A DNA stretch of 56,777 nt, taken from Bacteroidales bacterium. Its GTDB lineage: Bacteria; Bacteroidota; Bacteroidia; Bacteroidales; JAIPAP01. The notes under the pieces are model-generated. The model searched no databases and was not told the DNA's origin. It was given only the letters and a program-made list of their open reading frames with translations. Where the stretch lies: positions 1-56,777 of the forward strand of contig JAIPAP010000006.1 in NCBI GenBank assembly GCA_021740045.1, in the 5' to 3' direction. Each line of letters opens with the position of its first letter. Position 1 is the first letter of the stretch. This document shows positions 3,014-6,460 of this stretch, one piece after another. The position numbers and the translations under genes were made by a program.

Positions 3014-5071
3014 ATGGCTGAGAAGAAGAATTACAAGCGCTATACAGTTACGGCCGCATTGCCTTATGCTAACGGTCCATTACATATTGGTCATCTTGCA
3101 GGAGTATATATTCCGGCCGATATTTATGCCCGTTACCTCCGCTCAAAAGGCGAAGAAGTGGCCTTTATTTGCGGATCGGATGAGCATGGAGTGCCTATTA
3201 CCATCAAAGCCCGTAATGAAGGGAAGTCGCCGCAGGAAGTTGTGGATGAATATCATGAGATCAATAAGAAATCCTTCGAGGAATTGGGCATTACTTTCGA
3301 TATCTATTCCCGAACCTCCAATGCCATTCATCATATTACTTCTGCTGAATTCTTTAAGAAGCTGTATGACGAGGGAAAATTCATCGAACGGGAAAACGAA
3401 CAATACTTTGACGAAGAAAATAACCAATTCCTTGCCGACCGCTATATAACCGGAACCTGTCCCAACTGTGGCTATGAGAAAGCCTATGGCGATCAGTGTG
3501 AGAGCTGTGGCACTTCATTAAGCCCCAATGAATTGATCAATCCCACCTCAGCCATTAGTGGGAACAAACCTGTTTTACGAAAGACCAAGCATTGGTACCT
3601 GCCGCTCGATAAGTACGAACCCTGGTTAAAAAAATGGATTCTTGAAGACCATAAAGATGACTGGAAACCCAATGTTTATGGCCAATGCAAATCATGGCTC
3701 GACAAAGGGCTGCAAGCCCGGGCAGTGACCCGCGATTTGAACTGGGGCGTGAAAGTGCCGCTGGAAGAAGCCGAGGGAAAAGTGCTTTATGTATGGTTTG
3801 ATGCTCCTATCGGATACATTTCGGCTACCAAGGAATGGGCTACCGATAACGACAAGGATTGGAAACTTTATTGGAAAGACGAAGAAACCAAACTGGTGCA
3901 TTTTATCGGGAAGGACAACATAGTTTTTCATTGTATAATTTTCCCTGCTATGCTTAAGGCTGATGGTTCATATATTCTTCCTGATAATGTTCCGGCCAAT
4001 GAATTTCTGAATCTCGAAAACGATAAAATCTCAACATCGCGCGGATGGGCTGTTTGGCTTAATGAATACCTTGAAAAGTTTCCGGGTAAGCAGGATGTGC
4101 TACGTTACGTACTTTGTGCTAATGCTCCTGAAACCAAGGACAATAACTTTACCTGGAAAGACTACCAGGACCGGAACAACAATGAGTTGTTGGCGATATT
4201 GGGCAATTTTGTCAACCGGACCCTGGTACTCACCCAAAAATATTTCGATGGAAAGGTTCCTGGAGTAGGTGAATTAACCACCGAAGATAAAGCTGCTTTA
4301 GATGAAATGAAAGCCTATCCCGGCAAGATTGCCAAAAGCATGGAGAATTACCGTTTCAGGGAAGCCTTGAATGAAATGATGAACCTGGCCCGCCTGGGCA
4401 ATAAATACCTCACCGATCATGAGCCCTGGAAAAAAATAAAAACTGATGAGGAGCGGGTTAAAACCATCCTGAATATATCGCTGCAAATTGCTGCTAACCT
4501 GTCGATAGTGGCAGAGCCATTTATCCCGTTTACGGCCGAAAAGATGGTCAGGATGTTGAATATAGAGCAGAAATATTGGGAGGAAGCCGGATCGGCATCT
4601 TTGCTGGAAACCGGTCATCAGCTTAATAAAGCGGAATTCCTGTTCAATAAGGTTGAAGATGAAACCGTAGAAAATCAGAAACAGAAACTGATCGAAGAAT
4701 ATGAAAAGCGGCTGCAAAGGGAAAGCAAGGTGGCACCTGCAAAGGATCCTATAAAATTCGATGATTTCAGCAAGCTCGATATCCGTTCGGCCACCATTCT
4801 GGAGGCCGAGAAAGTTCCCAAGACCAAAAAGCTGATCAAAATGACAGTGGATACAGGTGTTGATAAACGTACTATTGTTTCGGGTATAGCGGAATATTTC
4901 AAGCCGGAGGATGTTATCGGTAAGCAAGTAAGTGTCCTGATCAACCTGGAACCCAGAAAGATCAAGGGTATCGAATCCAAAGGCATGATCCTGATGGCCG
5001 AAGATAATGATGGCAGCCTGCATTTCGTTAAGCCTGAGGATGAGATAACCAATGGCTCTGAGGTGAAGTAG
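3014..5071 (+). CDS. metG: Methionine--tRNA ligase
   Basis: [13 protein letters not shown] (HIGH), Zn knuckle CPNC...[19 protein letters not shown] (KMSKS-like), C-terminal tRNA-binding OB domain. Confidence 0.98.
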
Positions 5072-5090: not shown

Positions 5091-5098
5091 TAGTTTTG
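5091..5098 (+). promoter_or_regulatory. -7 promoter element for the tRNA fragment/GIY-YIG/tRNA unit
   Basis: TAGTTTTG (TAnnTTTG), 11 nt upstream of the first tRNA fragment. Confidence 0.6.
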
Positions 5099-5109
5099 CA
5101 GGTTGAAAG

Positions 5110-5169
5110 GGCCCCGTAGTTCAACGGATACCTGCCTGCCGGCAGGCAGGGAATAGAGGTTTCCTAAAC
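5110..5169 (+). pseudogene. 5' half of tRNA-Arg(CCT) with a 20-bp palindrome inserted at the end of the D-loop
   Basis: 5110-5130 plus 5151-5169 are identical to 5418-5457; the insert 5131-5150 is CCTGCCTGCCGGCAGGCAGG. Confidence 0.9.
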
Positions 5170-5178
5170 ATTGGATAG

Positions 5179-5427
5179 ATGTATTGGGTTTATGCTATAC
5201 AAAGTGAGATCGATGGCAGAATTTATGTTGGAATAAGTCAAAACGTAGACTTGAGGGTAAACCAGCATAATAAAGGACATACGCGTTCAACTAAAGGATA
5301 TAGACCATGGGGGTTGGTTTATACAGAACAAGTAGGAGAGAGTATGATGGCGGCCCGGAAAAGGGAAAAGTATTATAAATCTGGTATAGGCAGGGAAAAA
5401 ATAAAACAATTGAGTAAGGCCCCGTAG
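5179..5427 (+). CDS. Small stand-alone GIY-YIG nuclease family protein
   Basis: WVYAIQS...RIYVG...RVNQHNKG...STKGYRPW.LVYTE...ARKREKYYKSG.GRE. The TAG stop is tRNA nt 8-10. Confidence 0.9.
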   Translation: MYWVYAIQSEIDGRIYVGISQNVDLRVNQHNKGHTRSTKGYRPWGLVYTEQVGESMMAARKREKYYKSGIGREKIKQLSKAP

Positions 5428-5489
5428 TTCAACGGATAGAATAGAGGTTTCCTAAACCTTAGATACAGGTTCGATTCCTGTCGGGGCTA
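5418..5489 (+). tRNA. tRNA-Arg, anticodon CCT
   Basis: Acceptor stem GGCCCCG/CGGGGCT, D-arm GTTC/GAAT, anticodon arm GAGGT-TTCCTAA-ACCTT, T-arm CAGG-TTCGATT-CCTG. CCA not encoded. Confidence 0.95.
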
Positions 5490-5498
5490 CAAAGGGTG

Positions 5499-5528
5499 AA
5501 GAGAGCTAATTGCTCTCTTTTCTTTTTT
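5499..5528 (+). terminator. Intrinsic terminator after tRNA-Arg
   Basis: AAGAGAGC-TAATT-GCTCTCTT followed by a T tract. Confidence 0.8.
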
Positions 5529-5546
5529 CCAGCACCCTGAACTTGC

Positions 5547-5652
5547 GGTTTCCAAAACCTTAGATACAGGTTCCCTGCCTGCGTGACTGCAGTCAGGCAG
5601 GGATTCCTGTCGGGGCTACGAAGGGTGAAGAGAGCTAATTGCTCTCTTTTTT
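5547..5652 (+). pseudogene. 3' half of tRNA-Arg plus duplicated terminator, with a 28-bp palindrome inserted in the T-loop
   Basis: Matches the intact tRNA from the anticodon arm through the terminator, except the anticodon (CCA for CCT), one change after the discriminator, and the insert 5574-5601 CCTGCCTGCGTGACTGCAGTCAGGCAGG between TTC and GATT. Confidence 0.88.
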
Positions 5653-5812
5653 ATGCCCAGACCACATGATCTGGGAATTATAAGATGTTTGCTTATTGCT
5701 TCAGGTAACAGCGGGCCGGATGTCACCAAGCTCCATACGCCATGCTCTTTGCTTCAAGGGGCGCCTTTCTGCCCTGCAAGCCAGTTAAATTAAAAGCCTA
5801 CATTGGGTACCC

Positions 5813-6460
5813 TTAAAAAAACTCCTCCGTTCTGATATAAAATGGGTCGATGTCATAGTCTTCAAGGTATGCGGCCATTTCTTCTATCATCTGCGAATTA
5901 CCACACAAATAATAAATCGCGTTTTCATCGGGCTGCATATGGGTTTTAAAATAATCGGTGATCCTTCCCTGGTATTGACTGCCGTTTTCGCGCGTGGTAC
6001 AAAAGATCAATCTTTCAGGATCAAAAGCATCATGATCATATGCCTCCGATGTGTACCGTGTACCATGTAAAAGTTGATAATTGAGGTTTGGTTTGCTCTT
6101 CACAAAACTTCGAAAGGGAGCAATACCGGTACCGGTGGCCATAAAGATCAGCTTTTTTTCCTGCAGCTTTTCAATGTTCATCACAAAAAACCCATACGGG
6201 CCTTCAACATGAGCAATGTCACCTTCTTTTAACCGGCTAAGTTTTTCGCTTATATTACCCTTTTCCACGCGCCTGACCAGGATTTCCAGGTAGGGGTCCT
6301 CCTCACCTGAATAAATCGAATATTCCCGGCTATCGTTCCCGAGGCCCACAACGATGTATTGTCCGGCATGAAAAGCCATATCATGGCGCTCGAGGCGGAG
6401 CACAAAGGTGTTATCGGTTAAAAAACGTTTATTCAACACTTTACTGTTGTATGATCTCAT
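5813..6460 (-). CDS. FAD/NAD(P)-binding oxidoreductase, ferredoxin-NADP reductase family
   Basis: REYSIYS (RxYS), EGPYGFF, ATGTGIAPF, YLCGN, C-terminal EEFF. Confidence 0.88.
   Translation of the reverse strand: MRSYNSKVLNKRFLTDNTFVLRLERHDMAFHAGQYIVVGLGNDSREYSIYSGEEDPYLEILVRRVEKGNISEKLSRLKEGDIAHVEGPYGFFVMNIEKLQEKKLIFMATGTGIAPFRSFVKSKPNLNYQLLHGTRYTSEAYDHDAFDPERLIFCTTRENGSQYQGRITDYFKTHMQPDENAIYYLCGNSQMIEEMAAYLEDYDIDPFYIRTEEFF

Follow-up and report, generated by a model that had tools for sequence, protein, structure and literature searches.

Why would a bacterial tRNA gene be flanked by two partial copies of itself, each interrupted in a loop by one of two related palindromes, with a small nuclease gene in their midst? 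This arrangement occupies positions 5,091-5,655 of a 56,777-nucleotide stretch of DNA from a Bacteroidales bacterium (contig JAIPAP010000006.1 of assembly GCA_021740045.1; the whole stretch is called the window here), where a gene for a GIY-YIG protein adjoins an intact tRNA-Arg(CCT) gene. We refer to the 20-bp palindrome in the upstream copy as H and to its 28-bp relative in the downstream copy as H'. From sequence comparisons, we propose with moderate confidence that H would be the cognate hairpin of the nuclease, within a selfish cassette nested at the tRNA gene. Besides the anatomy of the locus, we directly observed the recurrence of the unit across phyla, the dispersal of H, a site that is filled with H in some repeat copies and empty in another, and an orthologous locus that is empty.

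Structure of the tRNA-Arg(CCT) locus

Apart from the palindromes, all features of the locus lie on the + strand. The 5' tRNA-Arg(CCT) piece comprises tRNA positions 1-21 (5110-5130; 21/21 identical to the intact gene by BLAST and alignment) and positions 22-40, ending in the anticodon loop (5151-5169; 19/19 identical). Between them, at the 3' end of the D-loop (GGATA^GAAT), stands H, the perfect 20-bp palindrome CCTGCCTGCCGGCAGGCAGG (5131-5150). The open reading frame (ORF) of the nuclease (5179-5427; 82 aa, one domain, Pfam PF01541) starts 28 nt after the end of H and runs into the intact tRNA-Arg(CCT) (5418-5490; ARAGORN, Rfam tRNA 66.9 bits), which is the sole tRNA-Arg(CCT) gene found in the assembly. 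Behind the intact gene, the terminator scan called an intrinsic terminator-like hairpin followed by a T run (5498-5530). The 3' tRNA piece follows, and its two parts, positions 29-55 (5547-5573; BLAST, 96.3% over 27 nt) and positions 56-73 (5602-5619; from the alignment of three tRNA copies), are separated in the T-loop (TTC^GATT) by the 28-bp family member H' (CCTGCCTGCGTGACTGCAGTCAGGCAGG, 5574-5601), which begins 147 nt after the nuclease stop codon. The single mismatch of this 3' fragment (5547-5619) to the intact tRNA-Arg lies in the anticodon, which reads CCA, not CCT. The terminator hairpin and its T run recur at 5627-5655, a copy that was read by eye; the terminator scan gave no call there.

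In the three-copy alignment both insertions are exact, with 0 bases duplicated or lost at either site. Both insertion points lie directly before GA, and the intact tRNA carries no insert, just as the original prediction, made from the letters of the window, had described. Its account of the palindromes is also borne out. The 12-nt center of H' is itself a 12-bp palindrome, TGACTGCAGTCA; H' as a whole is not a perfect palindrome (palindromic fraction 0.71) and shares its 8-bp outer arms with the 20-mer. Folded as single-stranded DNA (ssDNA), the 20-mer and the 28-mer reach -8.0 and -8.6 kcal/mol, respectively, and the 3' fragment together with its insert folds at -19.1 kcal/mol (z -5.2).

The GIY-YIG gene is the only ORF between the 5' partial and the intact tRNA copies, and no integrase or recombinase gene is present there, although BLAST and alignment place a partial and a complete tRNA copy at the two ends of the element, as in integrase-type tRNA elements. 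PF01541 covers residues 1-68 of the 82 (E 4.7e-14), i.e., the catalytic domain alone, and the protein has no separate DNA-binding domain of the homing-endonuclease kind. The catalytic residues Y5, Y16, G18, R26, H30, and E63 are invariant among 17 relatives. The best solved relatives, UPF0213 BH0048 (E 0.012) and SLX1, are weak matches (E 0.012 to 0.5 overall), and the NCBIfam model for group I intron endonucleases gave 17.7 bits against a cut-off of 56.

A promoter candidate, TAGTTTTG (5091-5098), lies 12 nt before the 5' tRNA fragment and fits the Bacteroidota -7 promoter consensus TAnnTTTG. It is the only + strand match from the end of metG to the intact tRNA; because such matches are not above chance (4 in 4.4 kb against 3.9 expected), only its position is informative, and it is likely the promoter of the whole unit. 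As no second -7-like motif stands between the fragment and the intact tRNA, the sole tRNA-Arg(CCT) is probably transcribed through the cassette, together with the nuclease gene. The TAG stop codon of the nuclease is built from bases 8-10 of the intact tRNA, so RNase P cleavage of the co-transcript would leave a message without a stop codon. Overrun of the ORF into the tRNA gene is frequent among the related loci described below, with a negative gap in ~20 of the 37 adjacent ones.

Contigs from the probable source run showed 0 differences from the window region, and independent assemblies share its architecture; an assembly artifact was rejected on these grounds. The contigs of four runs contained no joint skipping a palindrome or the cassette, so that no filled/empty polymorphism was seen at this locus; contigs cannot prove that it is absent. 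An archaeal-type tRNA intron or split tRNA was also rejected, since truncated fragments stand next to an intact gene. At this locus and at 12 related loci of the genome, Rfam recognized only tRNA and no family matching the hairpin. A clade-profile search at full sensitivity found no nuclease remnant behind the 3' fragment (5621-5830).

Recurrence of the unit across phyla

We recovered 52 loci by using an alignment of three proteins of this kind to scan a species-level genome collection; they span Bacteroidota, Ignavibacteriota, Planctomycetota (Scalindua), phyla of the candidate phyla radiation (CPR), Omnitrophota, Bdellovibrionota, and Pseudomonadota. A tRNA gene is present in 49 of the 52. 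It lies downstream on the same strand in 43, in 37 of these no more than 100 nt from the stop codon or in overlap with it, and a 5' piece of the same tRNA stands just upstream of the ORF in 38. The tRNA piece is interrupted and then resumes in 18 loci (one of them with a trivial 2-nt gap), and most of the remaining pieces run directly into a GC-rich hairpin. By reading the loci we counted GC-rich hairpins in or directly after the tRNA piece in ~40/52, and a regular expression found an H-type hairpin within 200 nt upstream of the gene in 20/52. Where it occurs, H is within the transcribed tRNA piece, at a distance of 13-110 nt from the ORF that follows.

All 60 relatives searched belong to other families of the same order, the collection holding no close relative of the window genome. 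The unit is also seen in three other families. In G023, the promoter, tRNA-Arg(CCT) positions 1-21, H with one mismatch, positions 22-41, and an 81-aa GIY-YIG gene are followed by a second copy of the promoter and the intact tRNA. G009 carries two tandem units before the intact tRNA, each made up of tRNA-Arg(ACG) positions 1-22, H, positions 23-33, and the nuclease gene, and G049 has two tandem 5' fragments with H, one bearing a nested insert. A second sample, built from the 40 next-best genomes of the order with the best match of each (47 GIY-YIG ORFs at 40 loci), repeats the unit at tRNA-Arg ACG, CCT, CCG, and TCG. It also contains a mirror form, in which the intact tRNA, a terminator, and the nuclease are followed by units whose 3' tRNA piece has a hairpin in the T-loop; H' in the 3' fragment of the window fits this form, but without a nuclease gene. 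The T-loop inserts of these units share the insertion point of H', and so do two further cases: in G005, the same 3' fragment with a T-loop hairpin stands directly behind the intact tRNA, and in a contig from a freshwater sample the sequence after the T-loop TTC continues into a CCCGCCCG-type hairpin (loose end at 5472). Tandem arrays are common in the order, with pairs of matches ~350 bp apart in many genomes.

At these loci H is flanked on either side by the sequence of the local tRNA and is itself the same 20-mer across families and tRNA species; either each tRNA has therefore received H independently, or selection has preserved H through the exchanges. The type of hairpin also changes with the nuclease. 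A clade from Flavobacteriaceae has CCCGCCCG-type hairpins, and in CPR and related loci the anticodon loop of a tRNA-Glu piece holds two small CCGCC-N3-GGCGG hairpins. When hairpin type was mapped onto the nuclease tree, 11 label changes were required against a shuffled mean of 22.3, and 0 of 200 shuffles were as low.

The locus itself is empty elsewhere. In the window, the cassette region follows metG (3014-5071, + strand, identified with Pfam). In two genomes of other families (G060 and G024), metG and the promoter motif are followed by an uninterrupted tRNA-Arg(CCT), with no fragment, hairpin, or nuclease gene; in this check 14 loci were examined, of which 6 included the end of metG and 2 of these 6 had the tRNA right behind it. 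Since the orthologous metG-tRNA locus is empty in these genomes, the cassette is, as judged by this comparison of loci, an insertion.

Dispersal of the hairpin family

H belongs to a family of dispersed hairpin repeats, CCTGCCTG...CAGGCAGG. The pattern CCTGCC-N4-24-GGCAGG has 4 matches at 3 distinct places in the window against 0.04 expected, a number reached by 0 of 100 shuffles, and with a relaxed pattern the 3.9-Mb assembly yields 15 copies. Four of these lie in tRNA-Arg copies, two at the window locus and two at tRNA-Arg(CCG) on contig C51, where a 5' fragment and a full-length extra copy, both with 20-bp inserts at GGATA^GAAT, stand beside the intact gene. A non-coding repeat holds six others, all at one site; a different repeat holds four, and the last copy is elsewhere. 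Copies with nested inserts exist. At the site in the non-coding repeat, the copy on contig C16 is empty and six are filled, with a clean difference of 20-21 bp and no target duplication, so the filled and empty sites that the original prediction called for do occur among paralogous repeat copies.

Beyond this genome, among 401 sampled genomes of the order, 60 contain CCTGCCTGC-N0-14-GCAGGCAGG, in as many as 12 copies, against 1/401 for a reversed control pattern. The exact 20-mer CCTGCCTGCCGGCAGGCAGG recurs across many genera, per-genome copy numbers of H range from 1 to 15, and the flanks of 30 H loci from other genomes are mostly not tRNA-like. The H family is apparently mobile, in agreement with the earlier suggestion of a tiny non-autonomous element. 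Set against the criteria for miniature inverted-repeat transposable elements (MITEs), the whole of H is a single palindrome, and there is no target duplication either at the window sites or at the filled/empty site.

Whether H seeks out hairpin loops, as had been proposed, is answered differently at the two scales. Within this genome H does occur in such contexts, namely a D-loop, a T-loop, and two repeat hairpins. Elsewhere the targeting does not hold up: when empty sites were rebuilt for 30 stand-alone copies from other genomes, 16/30 (53%) fell in a predicted hairpin-loop context compared with 48% of 1149 controls (p 0.58). A stricter test of flank complementarity was passed by 0 of the 15 copies in this genome.

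The non-coding repeat with the filled/empty site is ~400 bp long, has no Rfam match, and breaks the assembly, standing at the ends of contigs C5, C6, C16, C28, C46, C113, and C136; it also carries a nested CCTGCC-CTCGCCTGAGGCGAG-GCAGG hairpin. Full-length extra tRNA-Arg copies with H in the D-loop stand in tandem behind the intact gene (locus L074, 954-1427; C51, 8035-8131). ARAGORN labels these copies tRNA-??? with odd anticodons, making them a source of spurious tRNA annotations.

A proposed nuclease/hairpin cassette

In the explanation that we favor, a cassette of ~300 bp, consisting of the nuclease gene, its hairpin, and a duplicated tRNA piece, would be wedged between the promoter of the tRNA and the sole tRNA-Arg(CCT). 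The partial tRNA copies would be the direct repeats expected from entry or amplification by recombination with the tRNA gene. The succession of truncated copy, element, and full copy could be the outcome of a single-crossover (Campbell-type) recombination or of an unequal exchange, in which a tRNA segment borne by the element would pair with the chromosomal gene. The earlier suggestion that the inserts inactivate redundant tRNA copies probably has the order reversed, as the partial copies resemble a cassette's direct repeats or homology arms and not redundant genes disabled at a later time. H' would mark the 3' partial copy as a mirror-image unit downstream of the tRNA, here free of a nuclease.

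By analogy with the Ssn enzymes described below, the nuclease is expected to bind H and to nick ssDNA beside it, within the tRNA homology arm. A cut at this position would lie where productive exchange must start, and the resulting break might drive recombination, tandem amplification, and transfer; stand-alone copies of H may be spread by the same enzyme. A crossover on the outer side of the hairpin would keep the functional copy clean, which is the sole arrangement that selection would allow.

It is possible, though we consider it doubtful, that these loci represent an undescribed class of minimal mobile elements across phyla, in which a ~300-bp unit of GIY-YIG gene, tRNA piece, and own hairpin in a tRNA loop would act by nicking the folded hairpin in ssDNA within the tRNA arm. 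The break would trigger recombination with intact tRNA genes, by which the unit would come to lie between a promoter and its tRNA. Such an element could amplify in tandem, be excised without a scar, and move between genomes by way of the universal conservation of tRNAs, and its 20-bp hairpin may also spread alone.

At the level of genomes, the nuclease clade (membership threshold E<=1e-12) is found in 42 of the 60 genomes with H and in 105 of the 341 without it, an odds ratio of 5.2 between genomes that, being related, are not independent. Among genomes without a Y1 transposase, the clade is present in 8 of the 9 that have H. Only 1 of the 60 H genomes lacks both the nuclease and a Y1 transposase.

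Observations against the pairing and alternative explanations

Several observations weigh against the proposed pairing of H with the nuclease. The co-occurrence predicted for H and the GIY-YIG clade is seen at the level of genomes, but it is not specific, since a Y1 transposase is found in 51/60 genomes with H and 187/341 without it, an odds ratio of 4.7. No member of the nuclease clade reaches E<=1e-12 in 18 of the 60 H genomes, and 17 of these 18 have a Y1 transposase; repeat-rich genomes may carry H, the nuclease, and Y1 transposases together. Locally, the hairpin counts bear out a link between H and the GIY-YIG gene, but among stand-alone copies from other genomes a GIY-YIG gene is near just 1 of 30 loci (<=3 kb fetched, ~1.5 kb on each side). 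An H-type hairpin stands on both sides of the gene in just 1/52 loci. Variants of H differ by single-sided transitions, not by compensatory pairs, and point to neither strand. Host relatedness could also produce the clustering of hairpin types on the nuclease tree. Finally, this genome holds arrays of hairpin- or insert-bearing pseudo-copies at the tRNAs for Tyr, Val, Arg-TCT, Asp, Met, Asn, Gly, Leu, and Ala with no nuclease nearby, which indicates that the link between hairpins and tRNA copies is wider than one cassette.

Much of this evidence would fit a different explanation, in which H is an independent palindrome resembling repetitive extragenic palindromes (REPs) or MITEs, moved by another enzyme such as a REP-associated Y1 transposase (RAYT). 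The proximity to GIY-YIG genes would be secondary, and H would pile up in dead tRNA pieces solely because inserts are tolerated there. Besides the 29 of 30 stand-alone copies that are not next to a GIY-YIG gene and the frequency of Y1 transposases in H genomes, including the nuclease-free ones, this explanation is favored by the presence in this genome of Y1 genes with their own REP-like hairpins and of other hairpin families, e.g., 80 copies of TCCCGA-N-TCGGGA, and by the other, AT-rich inserts that occupy the D- and T-loops of tRNA pseudo-copies. However, an H-type hairpin was found at none of 14 Y1 transposase loci (4 in this genome and 10 in five H-rich genomes), and the hairpins beside several of them belong to other sequence families. 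Among nuclease-bearing genomes, a Y1 transposase adds nothing to the association with H (odds ratio 0.88). Chance accumulation would also leave unexplained why the same 20-mer stands at the same leader position in different tRNAs of several phyla, and why the hairpin family switches with the nuclease clade. We consider an independent REP- or MITE-like origin rather unlikely, and a RAYT was rejected as the mobilizer of H because no H lies beside the 14 Y1 genes. The Y1 genes at L128, L130, L131, and L126 are flanked by their own short hairpins, e.g., AGCAGGGCGTTGCCCTGCT on both sides, from which REP/RAYT-like systems seem common in these genomes.

A role at the RNA level appears improbable to us. 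H would here be a stem-loop in the 5' leader of the nuclease mRNA, stabilizing or regulating this message or preventing the tRNA piece from misfolding with the co-transcribed tRNA. The constant placement of H in the transcribed tRNA piece upstream of the ORF, the probable co-transcription of the tRNA with the nuclease gene from the sole -7-like motif, which precedes the fragment, and the end of the ORF within the tRNA, which makes a coupling of RNA processing and expression likely, would all suit such a role. In contrast, the variants show no compensatory changes, H' sits behind the terminator in the 3' piece, identical copies of H occur in unrelated non-tRNA contexts, the filled/empty difference is a DNA-level event, and no Rfam family matches.

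We hold it to be very unlikely that H serves as a homology breaker, splitting the 40-bp direct repeat into 21 + 19 bp and so lowering deletion of the cassette, or shielding the piece from a nuclease directed at the tRNA gene as in homing-endonuclease immunity: every non-functional tRNA piece beside these genes has an insert and the functional copy never does, and tandem arrays show that the repeats do recombine, but the conserved sequence of H and its stand-alone copies would be left unexplained and the 82-aa protein has no homing-type DNA-binding domain. Immunity as the main role was rejected because in G023 the promoter and 5' part are duplicated before the intact copy too, so that the intact gene shares the upstream context of the fragment and would still be a target.

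Relation to known systems

The closest counterpart of the proposed nuclease/hairpin pair is the Ssn family. Ssn enzymes are proteins of 94 aa with a single GIY-YIG domain. Their binding sites are hairpin repeats, which flank the enzymes' own genes and are also scattered over the genome, and cleavage of ssDNA takes place immediately upstream of the hairpin (Chenal et al. 2025, PMC11893778). As far as the parts of that report considered here go, the likeness lies in the small single-domain protein (82 aa compared with 94 aa for SsnA) and in a 20-50-nt hairpin repeat that stands beside the gene and is dispersed in the same genome (PMC11893778); it is a likeness of size, domain, and hairpin context. 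The genome table of the report lists ssnA/cd10448 homologues in Allomuricauda, Muricauda, Croceivirga lutea, and Melioribacter roseus without SRM enrichment (PMC11893778). By analogy, such homologues, found in genera shared with the present loci, would fit a different cognate hairpin there.

There are also differences from the Ssn system as described in those parts, some of which count against the pairing. H (CCTGCCTGCCGGCAGGCAGG) does not match the NTS consensus of Ssn, to which the 80-copy TCCCGA-N-TCGGGA family looks closer than H does, and the hairpin is common on both sides of the gene in Ssn, whereas it is one-sided here in all but the single locus mentioned above (PMC11893778). H has 1-15 copies per genome, not hundreds (PMC11893778). 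The present nuclease gene sits nested at a tRNA gene, together with a partial copy of the tRNA that a hairpin interrupts, and the main text of PMC11893778 contains 0 occurrences of 'tRNA' or 'Bacteroid'.

The origin of tRNA fragments by integrating elements is already known (PMC9897764). Compared with the integrase-borne islands and prophages at tRNA genes in the sections of that work that we draw on, the present insert is only ~300 bp long and carries a nuclease gene alone, with no integrase; the duplicated part of the tRNA is the 5' one in most sampled loci, and the partial copy is interrupted by a hairpin (PMC9897764). SegB, a free-standing GIY-YIG homing endonuclease of the phage T4 tRNA cluster (PMC2330249, PMC13096335), resembles the present case in being encoded among tRNA genes, and its nuclease-driven inheritance and the segmental amplification of tRNA loci reported in 2026 (PMC13096335) resemble the tandem arrays seen here. 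It is, however, a site-specific endonuclease encoded by a phage, and the portions of the two reports used here mention no hairpin repeat or partial tRNA copies (PMC2330249, PMC13096335). Homing GIY-YIG enzymes generally have a separate DNA-binding domain, according to the part of PMC3664794 on which we rely. With REP/RAYT systems H shares the form of short, GC-rich, dispersed palindromes inserted without target duplication, and such systems exist in this genome and its relatives; the difference is that no Y1 gene is flanked by H, which adjoins a GIY-YIG gene instead.

A full-text literature search gave no description of tRNA genes that harbor a nested small GIY-YIG gene along with tRNA pieces interrupted by hairpins. 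What appears to be new is the combination of an Ssn-like nuclease/hairpin pair with residence at tRNA genes in many lineages. If the proposed pairing is true, it would provide a second concrete setting for Ssn-type single-strand nucleases, as a selfish cassette nested at tRNA genes, and would account for a large group of small GIY-YIG genes, so far unexplained, that neighbor tRNAs in Bacteroidota, Ignavibacteriota, and CPR, as well as for many tRNA gene fragments and odd tRNA calls in annotation. It would also supply ssDNA work with new nuclease/hairpin pairs whose specificity is defined. The pairing raises the question of how a 20-bp palindrome is copied into new sites without target duplication.

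Other hairpins and tRNA pseudo-copies in the genome

Four tandem 131-bp units lie upstream of tRNA-Tyr (C36, 8740-9260; L004), each opening with positions 1-28 of tRNA-Tyr and having its anticodon and T arms replaced by other hairpins, TCCCGACTAAATCGGGA and GGCTAAAGTTAGCC. On the same contig (2192-2421), four copies of the TCCCGAT..ATCGGGA hairpin stand beside tRNA-Val, each in a repeated tRNA-like flank. TCCCGA-N2-9-TCGGGA hairpins number 80 copies genome-wide, with arms similar to the TCCCG/CGGGA core of NTS/dRS3 repeats in Neisseria. Their flanks are complementary in 22/79 compared with 1.9% of random positions, which indicates either nested or longer palindromes.

A second clade of small GIY-YIG proteins (97 aa) is encoded downstream of tRNA-Asn (C107, 1-650; C152, 9400-9952). 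These genes are flanked by tRNA-Asn pseudo-copies with TCCCGAT..ATCGGGA and TCTCGCCTGAGGCGAGA hairpins in the D-loop, anticodon arm, and T arm, and the arrangement looks like a different nuclease/hairpin pair in the same genome.

Interrupted partial copies of tRNA-Ala, tRNA-Leu, tRNA-Gly-CCC, and tRNA-Gly-GCC lie at C2 9000-9100, C147 27440-27550, C123 9960-10060, and C133 32320-32410. Their inserts occupy the D- or T-loop, are AT-rich and ~66-100 bp long, and run from GCCGAA... (or ACCGAA.../GCCCCGAA...) to ...TTCGGG. These AT-rich GCCGAA...TTCGGG inserts are another small insert family landing in tRNA loops.

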